A stretch of DNA of 64,000 nucleotides from Candidatus Peregrinibacteria bacterium CG_4_9_14_0_2_um_filter_53_11 (lineage in GTDB: Bacteria; Patescibacteriota; Gracilibacteria; UBA1369; UM-FILTER-53-11): NCBI GenBank assembly GCA_002788775.1, contig PFRX01000028.1, positions 18,959 to 82,958 on the forward strand, read 5' to 3'. The position numbers were made by a program, and so were the translations under genes. The notes under the pieces were generated by a model. It saw nothing but the letters and a program-made list of their open reading frames with translations. It was not told where the DNA came from and did no database searches. Positions 9,539 to 17,240 of this stretch are shown here, one piece after another (positions within the stretch are counted from its first letter, which is position 1; each line of letters opens with the position of its first letter).

Positions 9539-10300
9539 CTAAAGTCCGAAAAGGACCTGGACGTTCGTGCTAATGCTCACCTCAAGGACCTGAGCATCAG
9601 CAGGGCGAAGAGACTTAATCATCTCGAAGGTCTCAACCATAAAAGCCGGCTCGTTCCGCTCGCCCCGGTGAGACTGAGGTGCAAGGTAGGGACAGTCTGT
9701 TTCTACGATGAGCTTGTCGAGCGGACAGGTTCGAGCAACCTCTCTCAAAGCCTCAGCGGATGGGTAGGTGATAATACCCGTAAAAGCAGTGTAGTACCCC
9801 CGGTCCCAGGCCATCTCCGCCTCTTTCATCGTGCCCGTGAAGCAATGAATGAGCGCGCGCTCAGTCCCCTCCTGATCCATAATCTCGTAGGCGTCAGCAA
9901 AAGCGTCACGGCAGTGGACGATAACAGGGAGGCCCAGATTTTTCGCAAGACGCAGCTGGGCTCGAAAGACCGTCTGCTGAAGCTCAACGGGCTCGAAGGT
10001 TTTGTAGTAGTCCAGCCCCATCTCGCCAAGAGCCACGATTTTTGACTCAATCTTGCAGGTCTTGAGGATCTCGCTGGCAACCTCCTCATTCCACTCTGAG
10101 GCGCAGTGAGGGTGAATTCCCATCGTGCTGTACATAAACTCGTAGTCCTGCGCGAGCGCGAGCGAGCGGAAGTTCCCCTCAACATCGAAACCCACATTGA
10201 TCAGCTTTTCAACGCCTGCCGCGCGTGCGCGTGCGACTGCCTGAGCCCGATCCGAGTCGAAGGCGTCTACATGAAGGTGAGCATGACAGTCGATAAGCAT
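9539..10300 (-). CDS. tatD: TatD-family metal-dependent deoxyribonuclease/hydrolase
   Basis: N-terminal IDCHAHLH. Conserved HCR, HCF and ETDCPYL motifs. Confidence 0.9.
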   Translation of the reverse strand: MLIDCHAHLHVDAFDSDRAQAVARARAAGVEKLINVGFDVEGNFRSLALAQDYEFMYSTMGIHPHCASEWNEEVASEILKTCKIESKIVALGEMGLDYYKTFEPVELQQTVFRAQLRLAKNLGLPVIVHCRDAFADAYEIMDQEGTERALIHCFTGTMKEAEMAWDRGYYTAFTGIITYPSAEALREVARTCPLDKLIVETDCPYLAPQSHRGERNEPAFMVETFEMIKSLRPADAQVLEVSISTNVQVLFGL

Positions 10301-10367
10301 TGTGCAGTGGGGCGAAGAAGCGTTAATCTAGAGCAGGCACCAAGTTAATACACTATTATGGTACACG

Positions 10368-10396
10368 TTGATACAAGCTTTAAGGAGAATTATAAG
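10368..10396 (+). promoter_or_regulatory. sigma70-type promoter TTGATA-17-TATAAG
   Basis: -35 at 10368-10373 and -10 at 10391-10396. Upstream of the 10426/10447 ORF. Confidence 0.5.
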
Positions 10397-10446
10397 AGAG
10401 TTCGACAAAACTGCAAGAAGATAGGTTGATCCTTCCACCATTCAGA

Positions 10447-11517
10447 ATGAAAATAACCACCCTGCTCTGGGAGCTCTATGCTCTCTTCACCCCCTATGTA
10501 AGCCCTTTCGAACGACGCGTCGATCGCTTCTTTCTCTGGGTTAACTCATCAAGAAGCCGGGGGGAGGTGGAGCGTCGCATGAGGGAGTTGATGAGTGAAG
10601 ACATGATCACCTTCTCGGTCTGGGTTGAGAAACGCTTCAAAAACTACCACTACCTCACCAAGCGCCACCGACGTCAGATGTACCGTAATGCTGAGGCGAT
10701 CAAGGTGCAGTTTAAAGCTTTCGCTCAGAGCCAGTTGGTGAGTGGTAAAGCACTCGAAGAGGAGCTTGCGCGGGCCCGCGTTGCCGTCGCCCCCACTCGG
10801 CTTCCCGAACTCCAACATCTCGTCAGCATCATGCGGTATCTCGATCCACGCAGCCGCTTCCGCTATGAGGAGAGCCGCAGCTTCGGAAAGCTCCTCGCCG
10901 ACCCGAACAGCGCGCGACTCGTGGGCGACTGCAACCAGATCGTCACGCTCTATGCCGCCCTCTTCTCCCTCAAGTTCCCGCTCCGTGAACTACAGATAAA
11001 ACTTCTTCCAAAGCACGTCTGCCTCCACCTGGATGGAGTGGATATCGAGGCCACCAATGCGACTTTTCAGAACTACACCGAGTACGAGTATATCGCCCCA
11101 CTAACCGAGATCGTCGCCACAAACCTCTTGGATGTTAACGACCCCGATGAGCTCGTCATGAGTGTCGAGCCGGAGGTTTTCGTGAAGGGTGCCCAGCTCG
11201 CCTTCGCACTTTCGCAAAAACGAGAGGTTGTTGAGCACAATATCCGCGTCGCCTATCATAACCTCGCCCTTGCGGCCCTTAAGAGCCGCAACTTCACACG
11301 CGCTTACTTCTACGCTGACAAGATCCGTGACCCCAAGCTCTTACGGAGCTGTCAGGCGGCCGAGTACAACTCACTCGTGGCAAAAGTGTCACACGTTAAA
11401 ACTCTCAAGGAGGCCAAGGGCTATCGCTCAGTCTACCGCCGAATGATGACACTGGCCCGCGCGATGGGCGACAGTCAAGCGGCAGACCAGATAGGCAAAA
11501 CACTCGGAAAGATTTAG
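10447..11517 (+). CDS. Transglutaminase-like (SirB1/YchA-like) protein with helical C-terminal region
   Basis: Cys-His-Asp arrangement GDCNQIVTLYAALF ... PKHVCLHLDGVDIEATN, followed by a TPR-like helical tail. Start at MKITTLL; the track lists a TTG at 10426. Confidence 0.45.
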   Translation: MKITTLLWELYALFTPYVSPFERRVDRFFLWVNSSRSRGEVERRMRELMSEDMITFSVWVEKRFKNYHYLTKRHRRQMYRNAEAIKVQFKAFAQSQLVSGKALEEELARARVAVAPTRLPELQHLVSIMRYLDPRSRFRYEESRSFGKLLADPNSARLVGDCNQIVTLYAALFSLKFPLRELQIKLLPKHVCLHLDGVDIEATNATFQNYTEYEYIAPLTEIVATNLLDVNDPDELVMSVEPEVFVKGAQLAFALSQKREVVEHNIRVAYHNLALAALKSRNFTRAYFYADKIRDPKLLRSCQAAEYNSLVAKVSHVKTLKEAKGYRSVYRRMMTLARAMGDSQAADQIGKTLGKI

Positions 11518-11548
11518 GCTTGGCCCACTCCCCCCAAAAGACCGGAAG

Positions 11549-11577
11549 TTGACAACACCCCGAAACTACCTTACTAT
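11549..11577 (+). promoter_or_regulatory. sigma70-type promoter TTGACA-17-TACTAT driving the aro leader
   Basis: Consensus -35 at 11549-11554, exact 17-nt spacer, -10 at 11572-11577. The ATG of the leader ORF begins 7 nt after the -10 box. Confidence 0.65.
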
Positions 11578-11584
11578 GCCCACG

Positions 11585-11638
11585 ATGAAGCGCACTCCTG
11601 CAACCAACTGGTTTTATTTTTTTACCCTGACGGCTTAG
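11585..11638 (+). CDS. Aromatic-amino-acid leader peptide MKRTPATNWFYFFTLTA (17 aa)
   Basis: ATG AAG CGC ACT CCT GCA ACC AAC TGG TTT TAT TTT TTT ACC CTG ACG GCT TAG. Five consecutive aromatic codons (W-F-Y-F-F) sit directly upstream of the shikimate operon. Confidence 0.6.
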   Translation: MKRTPATNWFYFFTLTA

Positions 11639-11679
11639 GGAGAGCTTTTCGTATCACGAAAAACACTAATCCCTAGGTC
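11632..11679 (+). promoter_or_regulatory. Candidate antiterminator helix of the aro attenuator
   Basis: GGCTTAGGGA (11632-11641, containing the leader stop TAG) pairs over 10 bp (2 G-U) with TCCCTAGGTC (11670-11679). It shares 11670-11677 with the terminator 5' arm. Confidence 0.5.
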
Positions 11680-11699
11680 ACCCGCCGGGGATTTTTTTT
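11668..11699 (+). terminator. Intrinsic terminator of the aro attenuator
   Basis: AATCCCT(A)GG (11668-11677) pairs with CCGGGGATT (11685-11693), with one bulge and one G-U. The 3' arm runs into T8 (11692-11699). Confidence 0.6.
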
Positions 11700-11838
11700 A
11701 TTTATTACCTTTTTACTATGAACACACCGGGTATCAGATCATCGTTTAGACTGGCAGGCGCTCCTACGAGCACAGCCTGCCTTTGGCGAAGCAACGCTAC
11801 GAACTACCTTTATCGATAAGACCACTAACCCCACACCC

Positions 11839-12861
11839 ATGATTATCGTAATGAAACGTCATGCGCCCGAGGAGACGATCCAGCGCGTCATAGACGAGAT
11901 TGAAAAAGCAGGAATGCAGCCGGTTCCCCTCATCGGTACCGAGCGCACGGTCATAGCCATTATCGGAGATGAGCGGGGGCTCGACGAAGCTCATTTCAGA
12001 AGTTTACCGCATGTCTCAACCGTTATGCCGGTCCTACGACCGTACAAGCTCGCGAGCCGTGAGACAAAGCACGAATCGACGATCATACGCGTTGGAAATG
12101 TGGAGATCGGAGGCCAGACCATTGCCATGATGGCCGGCCCCTGCTCCGTGGAAAATGAAGACCAGATTGAAGAGTCAACGCGCGGTGTAAAGGCTCTCGG
12201 AGCTAACATTCTCCGCGGCGGCGCCTTCAAGCCAAGAACCGGCCCTTACGCCTTCCAGGGACTGGGTCGTGAGGGTATCGACCTTCTCTCGGCCGCCGGC
12301 AAGCGCCACGACATGGTGACCGTCTCAGAAATTATGGATGTTCGTGATGTTGAGTTCACCGCCTCAAAAATTGATATCCTACAGATTGGTGCACGCAACA
12401 TGCAGAACTTCGACCTTCTTAAGGAAGTGGGCCGTCTACAAAATCCCATCCTTCTAAAGCGCGGCATGTCGGCGACCATTAAAGAGTTCCTCCTCGCGGC
12501 CGAGTACATCCTCGCTCAGGGAAATCCCAACGTCATTCTCTGTGAACGTGGCATCCGCACCTTTGAAGACGAGACGCGCAACACACTCTGCATCGCGACC
12601 GTGCCTATCGTAAAAGAGCTCTCCCACCTTCCGATTATCGTAGACCCCAGCCATGGAACGGGCAAGGTCCAGCTGATCCCACCGATGGCAAAGGCTGCCA
12701 TTGCAGCCGGCGCTGATGGTATTATGGTGGAGGTCCATCCGAATCCGGATGTCGCCCTGTCAGATGCCGATCAGGCCCTCGACCTCGAGCGCTTTGGCGC
12801 TCTGATGAATGAGCTCGGCCCGATCACTCATGCGGTCAACCGCACCCTTCCCAATGACTAA
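11839..12861 (+). CDS. aroF: 3-deoxy-7-phosphoheptulonate (DAHP) synthase, type I-beta, with N-terminal ferredoxin/ACT-like regulatory domain
   Basis: Collinear, from my recollection of the Thermotoga-type enzyme: MIIVMKR...[12 protein letters not shown] regulatory domain, then [40 protein letters not shown]. Confidence 0.9.
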
Positions 12862-13906
12862 GATCCAGCAACAACCTCAGCTTATTATTCGCACGAAGGC
12901 CGTGGGCGAGCTCCCTCGGCTCGTGAGAAAAGCTGGGCACCAGTGCGTCGTTATTACCGACAGCCATCTTCGGAGCAAAGCCAACGAGCTCTCTCTGGAG
13001 ATCAAAAAAGCGGGCCTCCCCTGCTCCCTCCTTACCGTCCCCGCTGGAGAGAAGAGTAAGTCCCTCGTGGTGGTCGAAGAGCTGTGTGAGGCTCTGGTTA
13101 AAACCGGCCTGGGGCGGGATGGTGTTCTTGTGGCCCTGGGAGGCGGGGTTATAGGTGATCTTGCGGGATTTGTCGCATCGGTTTACATGCGAGGCATACC
13201 TTTTATCTCGGTACCGACCACTGTCATCGCGATGGCTGACTCGAGTCTGGGAGGCAAGACGGGAGTCGATCTCGCAAGTGGAAAAAATCTTGTGGGAACC
13301 TTCTATCCTCCGATGGCGATCCTGATGGACCCCACCCTGCTTGAAACCCTACCCGACCGTGAGTTCAAAGCCGGCTGTGCCGAGATCATCAAGCATGGTG
13401 TCATACATGACGAACGGTTCTTCACCTTTCTCGAGAAGAACCGAGAGAGTATTCTGGCCCGCAAACCAGCCCTCATTCTGAAAATGCTCAAGCAAAGTGC
13501 CAAGGTCAAGCTCACCATTGTGGGGGAAGATCCCCGGGAGGCACTACCGGCACGCCCGAACTCAACCAACCGGTCACGCATGCTCCTAAACTATGGACAC
13601 ACCATCGGCCATGCCCTCGAGAAGCTAAGCGAGTACACTCTTCCCCACGGGGAGGCGGTGGCCATTGGCATGATCGAGGAGAATAGGATTGCAGTGAAAA
13701 AGGGAATACTCACAAAAGACGCAGCGACTCGGATCAGCACCCTTATAGAGAACTTCGGCCTACCAACCAAGCTCCCCAAGGAGGCCACAATGGCACGCAT
13801 GAAAAAGCTCATCGCCCGCGACAAGAAAAAGGTGGGGAGCAGTATTTACTTCGCACTTCCCACCGGGATTGGAAGTGCTGACCTCTTCCCCTATGATCTC
13901 GCTTAA
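12854..13906 (+). CDS. aroB: 3-dehydroquinate synthase
   Basis: GGGVIGDLAGFVA, VPTT..A..DSS.GGKTG, and HGHT.GHA.E metal ligands. The ATG at 12854 overlaps the aroF stop (ATGACTAA). Confidence 0.9.
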   Translation: MTKIQQQPQLIIRTKAVGELPRLVRKAGHQCVVITDSHLRSKANELSLEIKKAGLPCSLLTVPAGEKSKSLVVVEELCEALVKTGLGRDGVLVALGGGVIGDLAGFVASVYMRGIPFISVPTTVIAMADSSLGGKTGVDLASGKNLVGTFYPPMAILMDPTLLETLPDREFKAGCAEIIKHGVIHDERFFTFLEKNRESILARKPALILKMLKQSAKVKLTIVGEDPREALPARPNSTNRSRMLLNYGHTIGHALEKLSEYTLPHGEAVAIGMIEENRIAVKKGILTKDAATRISTLIENFGLPTKLPKEATMARMKKLIARDKKKVGSSIYFALPTGIGSADLFPYDLA

Positions 13907-15653
13907 GGTTCCTGGTTCCAAAAGTTTGACCAATAGAGCGCTCATCATCGCCGCTCTTGCCACCACAAAGACGCGTCTCAATGGCTGCCTTTTCAGTGAT
14001 GACACGCGGGCTATGATAAAGTCACTTAAAGCGCTGGGGGTTGGTATTGAGCGGGAGGGCAGCAGCGTCATCGTCAGACCACCTAAAGGCGGCCGGCTCA
14101 CCAAGCCACGAGGCAGACTGAGCTGTGGAAACTCGGGAACGAGTGTGCGTTTTTTAAGCGCCCTTTTAGCCACACAGCCCTTCTCAACACTGATCGATGG
14201 AGACAACCGCATGCGCGAGCGCCCTCTTAAAGACCTCACCGATGCCCTCAGTCAGCTGGGAGCCTCGGTTGGCTTTTTACAGAGCTCCAACTGCCCGCCG
14301 GTGGAGATTGCCGGCCCCCTTGCGGGAGGAGCATGCACTCTTCGAGGGACGATGAGCAGCCAGTACCTCTCCGCCCTCCTCATGGCCGCCCCCTATGCAC
14401 AGAAGAGTGTCACGATAAGTGTTAAAGGCGGCCTCAGCTCAAAACCCTATGTTGACCTGACGATCGCCCTGATGGCGGAGTTTGGAGTTGTGGTTGGACG
14501 GGAGGGCTACCGACGGTTCACCATCAAGGCCGGCCAGCGCTACCGGCGGGCTCGAGCGCTTGATATCGAAGGAGACGCCTCAGCCGCGAGCTACTTCTGG
14601 GCTCTGGGAGCTCTGCTCGACGAACCTATCGACATAACCAACGTCCCTGATACGACGCTCCAACCCGACAAAGGCGCCTTCCTGAAAGCACTCCACCGCG
14701 TCATGCGCACCAAGAGTGAGGGGGGCCTTGAGCTCAGTGGTGAGGCCTTTCCCGATGCCGCTATGACGCTGGCGGTCGTCTGCGCTCTCCGCCCCGGACA
14801 GTGGAGACTGAGCGGCCTGCACACCCTCCGCGTTAAGGAGTGCGACCGCCTGAGAGCTCTCGCTACAGAGCTCAGAAAGCTCGGGGTTAAGGTAAAAGAA
14901 GAGGCAGAGGCCCTCACGATAAACGGCCGTGAGCCCACTAAACTTCATGGTGCTACCATCGAGACCTACAACGACCACCGGATGGCCATGTGCTTCGGAC
15001 TGGCCGGACTCCTCATCCCCGGAGTGACCGTCCTCAACCCCGGCTGCGTACGCAAGACCTACCCAACGTTTTGGAAAGATCTGAAGATGATCCAGAAGCG
15101 ACTCGACGAGCGACTGATCGTCATCAGTGGTATGCGTGGGACCGGCAAGAGCACTCTGGGGAGGGAGCTCGCGCAGAGGCTCAGACGGCCCTTTTACGAT
15201 CTCGATGAGGAGGTGGAGAGGCGGCTCGGGAAGAAGATTGTGGACCTGGTAGCAGAAAAAGGCTGGGAGGCATTTCGTGAAGAGGAGAGAAAAACCGTCG
15301 CGCTTTTTGTAAAAAAGAGGGGGGCGGTGCTGGCCACGGGAGGGGGAACCCTGATGGATGAGTCCAGCCAGCTCACGCTTAAGGCCGTCGGAAAGATACT
15401 CATTCTAGATGCTCCCCCGGAAGTTCTTATCAAGCGCCTTAAAAAAAGTAAAAACCGCCCCTCGCTTACCGGTACACAGACATTTCTGGATGAGTTGAGT
15501 AGTGTCTACCAAGAGAGGAAGGCTCGCTATCTCGCCGCGGCCGACTCGGTCTTTGACGTCTCCATCACTACGACTAACAAACAAGCCGACCGGATGAAGA
15601 AGGTAAAAGGGCTCGTGGAGATCGTCCGAATGCTCGGCTTTTCCACAGAATAA
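13893..15653 (+). CDS. aroA: Bifunctional EPSP synthase / shikimate kinase fusion (AroA-AroK)
   Basis: N-terminal ~430 aa is EPSPS (LKVPGSKSLTNRALIIAAL, NSGTSVRFL, KECDR, DHRMAM). The C-terminal ~165 aa is shikimate kinase (Walker A GMRGTGKST, DLD, ATGGG). The start may be 13869; either choice overlaps the aroB end. Confidence 0.9.
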   Translation: MISLKVPGSKSLTNRALIIAALATTKTRLNGCLFSDDTRAMIKSLKALGVGIEREGSSVIVRPPKGGRLTKPRGRLSCGNSGTSVRFLSALLATQPFSTLIDGDNRMRERPLKDLTDALSQLGASVGFLQSSNCPPVEIAGPLAGGACTLRGTMSSQYLSALLMAAPYAQKSVTISVKGGLSSKPYVDLTIALMAEFGVVVGREGYRRFTIKAGQRYRRARALDIEGDASAASYFWALGALLDEPIDITNVPDTTLQPDKGAFLKALHRVMRTKSEGGLELSGEAFPDAAMTLAVVCALRPGQWRLSGLHTLRVKECDRLRALATELRKLGVKVKEEAEALTINGREPTKLHGATIETYNDHRMAMCFGLAGLLIPGVTVLNPGCVRKTYPTFWKDLKMIQKRLDERLIVISGMRGTGKSTLGRELAQRLRRPFYDLDEEVERRLGKKIVDLVAEKGWEAFREEERKTVALFVKKRGAVLATGGGTLMDESSQLTLKAVGKILILDAPPEVLIKRLKKSKNRPSLTGTQTFLDELSSVYQERKARYLAAADSVFDVSITTTNKQADRMKKVKGLVEIVRMLGFSTE

Positions 15654-15722: not shown

Positions 15723-17240
15723 GTGAAGACACCCTCCCCTTTTGACGCAATCATCATCGGCTCGGGCATTGCCGGCCTCCACTCGGCACTCAGACTCGCT
15801 GAGACGGGGAGAGCGGTCCTCGTCGTGACCAAGAAGAAGATCGCACATACCGCCACAAACTTCGCCCAAGGCGGAATAGCCGCCGTCCTCTCACAAACGG
15901 ATGATGTTGAGAAGCATAGTGAGGATACGCTCGAGGCCGGAGCCTTTCACAACAACAAGCGTGCCGTAAGCTACATGGTCAAACATGGAGCTGCTTCGAT
16001 CCGACGTCTTATTGAGTACGGCGTCCCCTTTGCAACTCACGGAGGCGAGCTCCTCCTTACGCGCGAAGGCGGCCACAGTGAGCGCCGCATCGTCTTCGTC
16101 TCGGACTATACCGGTAAGGCAGTCGAAGAGGTTCTTGTCAAAAGGGCAAAAAAGCATCCGCTCATTACAATTTGGGAGGATGCCACCGCGGGCGACTTCA
16201 TCGTTAGAGACGGGCACTGTTTAGGCGTTGAGGTCATCCAAGAGGGGGAAGTTACAAAGATCTACGCCTCAGCCGTTATACTAGCCAGCGGAGGCGTGGG
16301 CCAGATATACGCATACACGACCAACCCCCTCATCTCTACCGGTGACGGAATCGCCATGGCTCACCGCGCGGGCTGCACAACCCGCGACCTCGAGTTCATA
16401 CAGTTCCACCCCACAGCCTTCCATCACGGCGGCAAGACCCGCTTTCTCATCTCTGAGGCGGTCCGGGGCGAGGGAGCTCACCTTCTCAATAGTAAGCACA
16501 AGCGCTTCATGGTTGGGCGCCATCCCCGAGCTGAGCTCGCCCCACGTGATATCGTCAGTCGTGAGATCTATAAGGAAGAGCGCGACGGCCCCGTCTACCT
16601 CGACCTCCGGCACAAAGATCCCGTAAAGGTCCATACCCGCTTCCCTCAGATCAGCGCCGCGCTCAAAAAATACGGCTTCGATATGGCACGTGACCTCATC
16701 CCGATCTCACCGGCCGCCCACTATCTCTGTGGAGGAGTAGAGGTGGACCTCAAGGGCCGCACCAGCCTCCCGGGCCTCTTTGCCTTTGGCGAGGTCGCCT
16801 GGACGGGTGTCCATGGAGCCAACCGCCTCGCCAGCAACTCTCTCCTCGAGGCTCTGGTCTTCTCCGAGCGCATCGTAGATGAGATACGCGGAACAGTCAG
16901 GGGGGATAAAAGTATGAACAGCCAGATAAACGGGCCACCCCCCAGCGCACGGGGTACAAACCTTCCCCCCTGCACGCCATCACAAAAGCGCCTCTACGCA
17001 AAACTACGCCGCTCACTCCAGAAGACGATGTGGGAGTCGGCCGGCATTATTCGCACTGAGGAGGGACTCAAGAAGGGGTTGAGCGAGGTCAAGGCAGCCG
17101 AAAAACTCATCCAAAACCCGGACTCTCTTGAGGGCCGGGAGCTAAGCAACATGCTCACTGCAAGTGAGCTCATTATTCTGGCTGCACTAAGACGAAAGAC
17201 CTCACTCGGCTGCCACTTTAGAAGCGACTCAGAAGACTGA
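15723..17240 (+). CDS. nadB: L-aspartate oxidase
   Basis: FAD fold DAIIIGSGIAGL; NadB/succinate-dehydrogenase flavoprotein-like motifs (FAQGGIAA, QFHPT, GGV.VD, GANRLASNSLLE). GTG start. Confidence 0.9.
   Translation: MKTPSPFDAIIIGSGIAGLHSALRLAETGRAVLVVTKKKIAHTATNFAQGGIAAVLSQTDDVEKHSEDTLEAGAFHNNKRAVSYMVKHGAASIRRLIEYGVPFATHGGELLLTREGGHSERRIVFVSDYTGKAVEEVLVKRAKKHPLITIWEDATAGDFIVRDGHCLGVEVIQEGEVTKIYASAVILASGGVGQIYAYTTNPLISTGDGIAMAHRAGCTTRDLEFIQFHPTAFHHGGKTRFLISEAVRGEGAHLLNSKHKRFMVGRHPRAELAPRDIVSREIYKEERDGPVYLDLRHKDPVKVHTRFPQISAALKKYGFDMARDLIPISPAAHYLCGGVEVDLKGRTSLPGLFAFGEVAWTGVHGANRLASNSLLEALVFSERIVDEIRGTVRGDKSMNSQINGPPPSARGTNLPPCTPSQKRLYAKLRRSLQKTMWESAGIIRTEEGLKKGLSEVKAAEKLIQNPDSLEGRELSNMLTASELIILAALRRKTSLGCHFRSDSED

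Follow-up and report, generated by a model that had tools for sequence, protein, structure and literature searches.

Transcription attenuation by a leader peptide at the first reaction of the common shikimate trunk has been described in Corynebacterium glutamicum, where the leader peptide aroR, containing Phe-Tyr-Phe, precedes the DAHP synthase gene aroF. According to PMC11802643 and PMC4046766, which both cite Neshat et al. 2014, aroR was experimentally shown to be an attenuator, and read-through into aroF is enhanced under Phe limitation. Leaderless leader peptides followed by a hairpin and a U-stretch were reported for trpL1, leuL, and ilvL of Streptomyces lividans (PMC8079986), and the leader of C. 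glutamicum ilvB is also leaderless according to PMC4046766 (its reference 42). Here we analyse a 64,000-nt stretch of a metagenome-assembled genome of Candidatus Peregrinibacteria, which belongs to the candidate phyla radiation (CPR). This whole stretch is hereafter called the window. Upstream of the genes for DAHP synthase, aroB, and an aroA-aroK fusion, the window contains a short open reading frame (ORF) with a run of Trp, Phe, and Tyr codons, followed by alternative RNA helices. We propose, with a probability of about 0.85, that a ribosome-mediated (leader-peptide) transcription attenuator controls the DAHP synthase–aroB–aroA/aroK operon.

The counts given below refer to ten loci, which are the window and nine relatives that bear a leader. 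The Peregrinibacteria locus resembles aroR-aroF in that mixed aromatic codons are positioned directly upstream of a DAHP synthase gene, and in that the read-through of a terminator is proposed to depend on ribosome stalling. The target in both systems, a proposed one in ours, is the start of the common shikimate trunk and not a terminal branch. Unlike aroR-aroF, the locus belongs to another phylum, and a sequence relationship between the two was not detected. The DAHP synthase encoded by C. glutamicum aroF is of a different class from the Peregrinibacteria enzyme. Whereas aroR lacks a Trp codon, nine of the ten Peregrinibacteria leaders contain UGG before a longer run of Phe and Tyr codons. 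Furthermore, the Peregrinibacteria operon adds aroB and aroA-aroK, and the terminator is followed by a second small ORF or promoter-like element.

The locus also shares its architecture with the enterobacterial leaders trpL and pheL (Trp_leader, RF00513, and Phe_leader, RF01859, of Rfam). Four segments form 1:2, 2:3, and 3:4 helices followed by a U-run, the regulatory codons are located just upstream of segment 2, and segment 2 becomes inaccessible when a ribosome occupies the stop codon (as proposed for our loci). However, trpL and pheL control terminal branches, respond to one amino acid each, and have leaders that bear Shine-Dalgarno sites. Their untranslated RNA terminates (superattenuation), whereas the naked RNA of the Peregrinibacteria leaders favours the antiterminator in six of the ten loci. 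The leaderless leaders of Actinobacteria are similar to the Peregrinibacteria ones in that the ORF begins at the transcription start (a predicted one in our case) or directly beside it, has no ribosome-binding site, and precedes a hairpin with a U-stretch. They belong to a different phylum and precede different operons, and none of those in PMC8079986 is located in front of a DAHP synthase gene.

The original prediction, made from the window sequence alone, held that a mixed aromatic leader on the common trunk was undescribed. This claim was overstated, because aroR-aroF is known, as are leaderless leader peptides in Actinobacteria. What is new is that such a leader occurs in a CPR lineage, that Rfam has no family for it, that the Trp codon is nearly constant, and that a second conserved element is present at positions 11718–11819 of the window. 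Our search of a literature library returned nothing on Peregrinibacteria together with shikimate and, among the results listed, no Patescibacteria paper on attenuation or leader peptides.

Leader ORF with a conserved run of aromatic codons

The DAHP synthase of the window is identical to a protein assigned by NCBI to Candidatus Peregrinibacteria bacterium CG_4_9_14_0_2_um. A protein search identified about 120 homologues of the window DAHP synthase at 61–76% identity, mostly from uncultured Peregrinibacteria, Gracilibacteria, or Patescibacteria assemblies. Scanning of genomes with the DAHP synthase provided one close relative among the matches listed (L001, 75% identity), and scanning of metagenomes provided no relative above 58% identity among the matches listed. 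The comparison set was composed of L001 and of loci L161–L171, which were obtained by exact-protein look-ups. Nine of these relatives bear a leader (L001, L161–L165, and L167–L169), and their DAHP synthases are 63–76% identical to that of the window. The order of genes is kept across the relatives: TatD, a variable gene, the intergenic region, DAHP synthase, aroB, aroA(-aroK), and nadB.

The leader ORF of the window (11585–11638; all window features described here are on the + strand) has 17 codons followed by TAG (11636–11638) and encodes the peptide MKRTPATNWFYFFTLTA. Its codons UGG UUU UAU UUU UUU (11609–11623) specify W-F-Y-F-F, so that five consecutive codons of the 17 correspond to end products of the pathway, an enrichment characteristic of leader-peptide attenuators. 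Orthologous ORFs are present in the nine related loci and encode the peptides MNLTSTNRVNFYFYFPTS (L001), MFASKSFQFWAFYYFPLNT (L161), MNMTAQKWGFEYFYFPSP (L162), MATGVWNNFYFYFFPS (L163), MHTAAATWSFYFYFLS (L164), MEIARKTWNYFYFFLLS (L165), MITERSQLELKNFQADWGFFYFYF (L167), MQNTQPSAAVSQKQHVQSWGFSYFYYFTRA (L168), and MKPRGTTSFWFGYFYPFS (L169). The run of Phe and Tyr codons is in frame in all ten loci, and the typical run in the relatives is W..F-Y-F-Y-F. The Trp codon UGG is present in nine loci, one to three codons before the Phe/Tyr run. The U-rich stretch is always read as Phe and Tyr in the frame of the ATG, and the Phe and Tyr codons differ synonymously among the loci (UUU or UUC, UAU or UAC). 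Outside the aromatic run, the leader peptides are unrelated in sequence, and their lengths vary from 16 to 30 residues. Some of the loci are labelled Gracilibacteria, and the reading of UGA as Gly was considered for them and rejected. Internal TGA codons are absent and TGA serves as a stop; therefore, UGA was read as a genuine stop codon in these genomes.

The leader ORF is preceded by a predicted promoter, P1, with the -35 hexamer TTGACA (11549–11554) and the -10 hexamer TACTAT (11572–11577) separated by a 17-nt spacer. A promoter scan ranked P1 as the top sigma-70-like match within 10300–13000, with 10 of 12 positions agreeing with the consensus, and TTGACn is found at the equivalent place in related loci. 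The -10 hexamer ends 7 nt before the leader ATG in the window, L161, L162, and L165, and 9–13 nt before it in L164, L169, L001, and L163. The 5' untranslated regions of L167 and L168 are apparently longer.

The distribution of motifs upstream of the window genes is informative about the mode of initiation. Shine-Dalgarno tetramers are depleted (GGAG occurs once, GAGG and AGGA do not occur, and 3–5 were expected), and this organism apparently does without Shine-Dalgarno sites. The tetramers CTAA (13 versus 1.2 expected) and TAAC (9 versus 1.9) are enriched at positions -22 to -3 of the approximately 44 long ORFs. The pattern TAnnnT occurs 5–9 nt before the start in 14 of 44 window genes, whereas about three were expected, which suggests that about a third of the genes of the window are leaderless. 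Because of this pattern and the depletion of Shine-Dalgarno tetramers, leaderless initiation of the leader mRNA is plausible for this organism. The promoter hexamers with their spacing to the ATG, the 17-codon ORF, and its W-F-Y-F-F codons are exactly where the original prediction had located them. The apparent leaderless start that it had proposed fits the 7-nt spacing in the four loci as well as the gene-wide motif distribution.

Mutually exclusive helices downstream of the aromatic codons

The RNA of the window downstream of the aromatic codons contains four segments capable of alternative pairing. Segment 1 (CCCUGA, 11625–11630) pairs with UUAGGG (11635–11640) when the RNA is folded up to segment 2, and CCYU:GAGG pairings similar to this 1:2 helix are present in most relatives. 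Segment 2 (11632–11644), the 5' arm of the antiterminator, holds the leader stop codon. Segment 3 (11666–11679), the 3' arm of the antiterminator, has 7 nt (11668–11674) in common with the 5' arm of the terminator. Both arms were delineated by folding and by comparing the pairing of arms from the same and from different loci. The core of the antiterminator is formed by GGCUUAGGGA (11632–11641) and UCCCUAGGUC (11670–11679), which pair over 10 bp including two G-U pairs. The minimum-free-energy fold of 11585–11705 has an energy of -32.2 kcal/mol (z = -2.75), which was equalled by one of 200 shuffled sequences. Within this fold, the antiterminator has two additional pairs and a small hairpin at its top. 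The apical hairpin UUUUCGU-AUC-ACGAAAA (11646–11662) atop the antiterminator was identified in the fold, and its sequence is not kept in the relatives.

The intrinsic terminator (11668–11699) has a stem formed by 11668–11678 and 11684–11693 with a bulged A11675, a 5-nt loop (11679–11683), and a run of eight T (11692–11699). AAUCCCU (11668–11674) pairs with GGGGAUU (11687–11693), and GGU (11676–11678) with GCC (11684–11686). This hairpin forms when the RNA 3' of a ribosome bound at the stop codon is folded. A consensus terminator scanner did not find any terminator within 10300–13000. It missed the terminator of the window because the stem is bulged, and folding was used instead. The 10-bp antiterminator had been predicted at the same coordinates, and the fold of 11585–11705 that had been suggested as a check contains it. 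The short 1:2 helix of the original prediction exists and is longer than proposed. The terminator with its run of eight T is present as predicted, and its stem had to be slightly redefined to accommodate the bulged A11675.

The arrangement is conserved in all ten loci. The stop codon either falls within the antiterminator 5' arm or closely precedes it, and the antiterminator 3' arm shares 6–12 nt with the terminator 5' arm. A terminator hairpin with a run of six to eight T is positioned 53–66 nt after the leader stop. The last aromatic codon precedes segment 2 by 5–12 nt, and the stop codon lies 7–18 nt before the end of segment 2. When folded up to the 3' arm of the terminator, the RNA of every locus adopts the antiterminator, with energies of -13.8 to -25.4 kcal/mol. 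Relative to shuffled sequences, the z-scores of these sub-folds range from -1.1 to -4.7, and at most three of 200 shuffles were as good in nine of the ten loci.

Automatic alignments of the leaders by MAFFT misplaced the 3' arms by one or two columns because the loops differ in length. Therefore, we used duplex tests that do not depend on an alignment, together with a hand alignment. Antiterminator arms from the same locus pair with a mean energy of -15.9 kcal/mol, versus -9.3 kcal/mol for arms combined across loci, if the arms are defined by hand, and with -19.3 versus -12.9 kcal/mol if the windows are set by a positional rule. The corresponding values for the terminator are -10.7 and -7.2 kcal/mol. 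None of 20,000 permutations was as good as the observed pairing in any of the three comparisons. The hand-made alignment, which includes only ten sequences and in which the arms were checked to be real substrings, has 11 columns of the antiterminator and 6 of the terminator with compensatory changes on both sides. One of the changes tracks the stop codon itself: the UAG of the window is UGA in L001, and the U-A pair is replaced by G-C. The sequence elements, their conservation and geometry, and the covariation of both helices are observed properties of these loci. They include the hallmarks of leader-peptide attenuators: a terminator before the first structural gene, an antiterminator that excludes it, and a geometry suited to control by the position of the ribosome. 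The aromatic mini-ORF and compensatory changes in the helices upstream of DAHP synthase, proposed earlier as a check in relatives, are found in ten of ten leader-bearing loci. These loci support the core of the original prediction, namely an attenuator with aromatic codons, mutually exclusive helices, and a stop codon in the antiterminator 5' arm.

The hairpin and T-run could alternatively be the terminator of the upstream gene, with the mini-ORF present by chance, a scenario under which the original prediction would have failed. A co-directional gene does end upstream of the leader in the window (10426–11517) and in L162–L165, and the scanner detected no other terminator between that gene and the hairpin. 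However, the ORF and hairpins are also present in five of the nine relatives, L001, L161, L167, L168, and L169, in which the upstream gene is divergent. For this reason the scenario fails. Furthermore, a consensus promoter is positioned between the upstream gene and the ORF, and the probability that an in-frame run of five aromatic residues occurs by chance in ten loci is negligible. We consider this explanation extremely improbable.

The leader family is absent from Rfam: no Rfam family reached its gathering threshold in the window or in ten related loci. The top match was Phe_leader (RF01859) with 20.3 bits and an E-value of 2.6, below the gathering score of 55. Within 10500–12500, no T-box or riboswitch family matched even at E-values up to 10. 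These searches bear on the possibility that a protein or a small ligand operates the switch, in the manner of TRAP, a T-box, or a riboswitch, and that the small ORF has no part in it. The presence of alternative helices is not in itself proof that a ribosome is involved, and the preference of the naked RNA for the antiterminator in most loci would suit such a switch. Nevertheless, the sole match in the window and relatives was the sub-threshold one to Phe_leader, and the U-rich stretch invariably lies in frame with the ATG, where it is read as Phe and Tyr. In addition, the placement of the stop codon is kept while the length and N-terminus of the peptide vary. Control by a protein or ligand is therefore highly improbable.

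Proposed mechanism of attenuation

Based on the features described above, we infer where transcription starts, that the leader is translated, that ribosomes stall on it, and how this affects termination. Transcription from P1 would begin at the leader AUG or only a few bases away from it, and the leader would be read as a leaderless mRNA. When charged tRNA-Trp, tRNA-Phe, and tRNA-Tyr are plentiful, the ribosome would reach the UAG codon (11636–11638), and its footprint would cover segment 2 (11632–11644). Segment 3, deprived of this partner, would pair with segment 4 to form the terminator (11668–11693 followed by U8), and a transcript of about 115 nt would be released. Slow reading of any of the aromatic codons (11609–11623) would stall the ribosome 11–23 nt before segment 2; at the later aromatic codons, the stalled ribosome would also cover segment 1. 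The 2:3 helix, with about -15 to -25 kcal/mol versus about -8 to -12 kcal/mol for the terminator, would then form, and transcription would read through into the operon.

Several observations weigh against this mechanism. The naked full-length RNA favours the antiterminator in six of the ten loci, and untranslated RNA would therefore probably read through, unlike that of E. coli trp. The contribution of Trp is uncertain, because stalling at the Trp codon would leave segment 1 uncovered, another departure from E. coli trp. The terminator stem of the window is modest, with three G-C pairs in the outer 7 bp and one bulge. The compensatory changes were counted by hand among ten sequences, and the attenuator is deduced from the genome sequences of uncultured organisms. 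L166, L170, and L171 have short intergenic regions without any leader upstream of DAHP synthase. Finally, the start region of a second small ORF located downstream of the terminator matches TGnTAnAnT, the consensus of an extended -10 promoter element, in seven of the ten loci, and not clearly in the window.

Second conserved element between the terminator and the DAHP synthase gene

The spacer between the T-run and the DAHP synthase gene is 130–300 nt long in the ten loci. An ATG 19–43 nt after the T-run is conserved in 11 of 11 loci, which are the ten and L084 from a more distant lineage; L163 differs and carries an insertion. This insertion of about 180 nt (2403–2580), which is present in L163 only, is located between the terminator and the second ORF, is G+C-rich, and contains several hairpin-forming repeats. 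In the window, the conserved ATG opens a candidate second upstream ORF (uORF2) of 33 codons (11718–11819) encoding MNTPGIRSSFRLAGAPTSTACLWRSNATNYLYR, which ends with the conserved CUU-UAU (Leu-Tyr). The second ORF has 22–45 codons in the various loci, and CUU-UAU, or UUU-UAU in L161, is located 0–9 codons before its stop (0–3 codons in seven loci). CUU-UAU is in frame at five different distances and is often preceded by W, Y, F, or C. The motif TTAACC(C) is positioned 8–11 nt before the conserved second ATG (9–11 nt in the relatives), and its counterpart in the window is TTACC (11705–11709), 8 nt before the ATG of uORF2. The element occupies 11700–11838 in the window and 2872–3000 in L001, and L161–L169 have equivalents. 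A further motif, TAACC (11826–11830), is located 8 nt before the DAHP synthase ATG and is a candidate non-Shine-Dalgarno initiation signal; TAACC also precedes DAHP synthase in approximately half of the loci.

The second conserved element may function as a uORF, as an internal promoter, or in both ways. The universal ATG, the in-frame CUU-UAU, and the TAACC motif, together with the enrichment of TAAC and CTAA before the window genes, speak for the translation of uORF2. The conservation of the element is at the nucleotide level and not at synonymous positions, which speaks against translation. We rejected the openness of the reading frame as proof of coding, since the spacer is poor in stop codons in all three frames and openness is thus weak evidence. 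Folding of single sequences of the spacer and uORF2 region revealed no conserved RNA fold. A 7-bp hairpin, GGCAGGC/GCCUGCC (11753–11781, with arms 11753–11759 and 11775–11781), is located inside uORF2. The original prediction had suggested it as a further pause or termination element. The hairpin exists; its role as a conserved pause site or terminator was rejected, since a clear equivalent is present only in L001, and L164 and L161 have weaker abutting hairpins.

The TGnTAnAnT motif just after the terminator could be a second promoter, P2, that bypasses the attenuator. In its strongest form, this idea makes the mini-ORF and terminator an independent unit, encoding a hydrophobic micropeptide or a small RNA, with the aro operon transcribed mainly from the promoter downstream of the terminator. 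The motif is found 20–40 nt after the T-run in seven of the ten loci, the invariant positions of the element suit a promoter better than a peptide, and the window contains TACTAT at 11714–11719. Yet the window itself is without the extended -10 motif. A plain terminator needs no antiterminator, whereas all ten loci retain, with compensatory changes, the competing helix in which the stop codon is embedded. Moreover, the mini-ORF and terminator are always linked to DAHP synthase, and unrelated lineages (L084, L095, and L152) have similar aromatic leaders in front of DAHP synthase. The existence of such an independent unit is thus highly unlikely.

If leader-peptide attenuation operates and uORF2 is translated as well, the two could constitute a two-stage sensor. 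The attenuator would be followed by uORF2, in which Leu-Tyr would act as a Tyr-specific stall or arrest site that gates the translation of DAHP synthase or the Rho-sensitivity of the transcript, in an organism with non-Shine-Dalgarno initiation, leaderless starts, and a CUAAC-type motif. We regard the two-stage sensor as a doubtful speculation. If it exists, its compound architecture would have no described counterpart among amino-acid operons, and it would provide the first case of cis-regulatory logic elucidated in a CPR bacterium.

Genes of the operon and its neighbourhood

The first gene of the operon encodes a type I-beta DAHP synthase (11839–12861) with an N-terminal ferredoxin-like regulatory domain (Pfam PF18152 and PF00793, NCBIfam NF006421), and the protein matches the Thermotoga maritima structures 1RZM and 3PG9 over the full length. 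It is followed by aroB, encoding 3-dehydroquinate synthase (12809–13906), and by an aroA-aroK fusion encoding EPSP synthase and shikimate kinase (13869–15653), both assigned by Pfam and NCBIfam matches and without refinement of their start codons. The domain and family matches establish the three genes named in the original prediction, and PF18152 corresponds to the N-terminal allosteric domain that it had ascribed to the DAHP synthase.

The aro genes are followed in the same orientation by nadB, encoding L-aspartate oxidase (15723–17240), which is also the case in L161–L165, L169, and L171. Given the shared orientation and the gap of only 0–80 nt after aroA-aroK in most loci, nadB may be co-transcribed with the aro genes and co-regulated by the aromatic attenuator. 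On the other side of the leader, a prephenate dehydrogenase gene (tyrA) is located directly upstream and on the same strand in L162 (1876–2712), L163 (1433–2263), L164 (1621–2460), and L165 (188–988). Because of this arrangement, the terminator of the attenuator may also serve to end tyrA transcripts in these four loci.

In the loci without a leader, the region in front of the DAHP synthase gene comprises 2922–3000 in L166, 2871–3000 in L170, and 2928–3000 in L171, and their DAHP synthases are 63–65% identical to that of the window. L166, L171, and the P0061 locus have instead an unannotated ORF of about 150–160 residues directly upstream of DAHP synthase. L166 also has a hairpin and a T-stretch just 5' of the DAHP synthase ATG.

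Aromatic leaders in other lineages and significance

Aromatic leaders followed by a T-run also precede FXD-type DAHP synthases in more distant lineages: L084 contains FGFWFYFY (2106–2177), L095 SWFYYFY (2288–2371), and L152 YFYFYF (2347–2388). In L140, a short ORF with SYFYFW (1761–1829) is located before an FXD-type DAHP synthase. The DAHP synthases of these four loci are 51–57% identical to that of the window. L084 has an overlap of antiterminator and terminator and a second ORF starting with ATG, as in the Peregrinibacteria loci. In the Clostridium-type loci L021, L035, L043, L046, L063, L101, and L142, DAHP synthase is preceded at a distance of 200–370 nt by a conserved aromatic-rich ORF of approximately 34–45 residues, with a T-run after the ORF. 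The consensus of the ORF is K-F/L-Y-S-F-F/Y-Y-F-x-F-W-G-F-x-F-S-A-G/S-Y, and the ORF could encode either a small membrane protein or a long leader peptide of the aromatic type. Because similar leaders precede FXD-type DAHP synthases in other lineages, the use of aromatic leaders seems to be recurrent and under-annotated.

The Peregrinibacteria leaders, a conserved and very probably functional family of at least ten members, would join C. glutamicum aroR as leader-peptide control of the common shikimate trunk. The motif could be used for annotation, for example as an Rfam family, or as a marker of a functional shikimate pathway. CPR bacteria are usually described as metabolically dependent, and little is known about their regulation. 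A conserved attenuator would imply that some Peregrinibacteria synthesize their own chorismate or aromatic amino acids, and that in these bacteria transcription is coupled to translation and the entry step of the pathway is tuned to the charging of tRNA.

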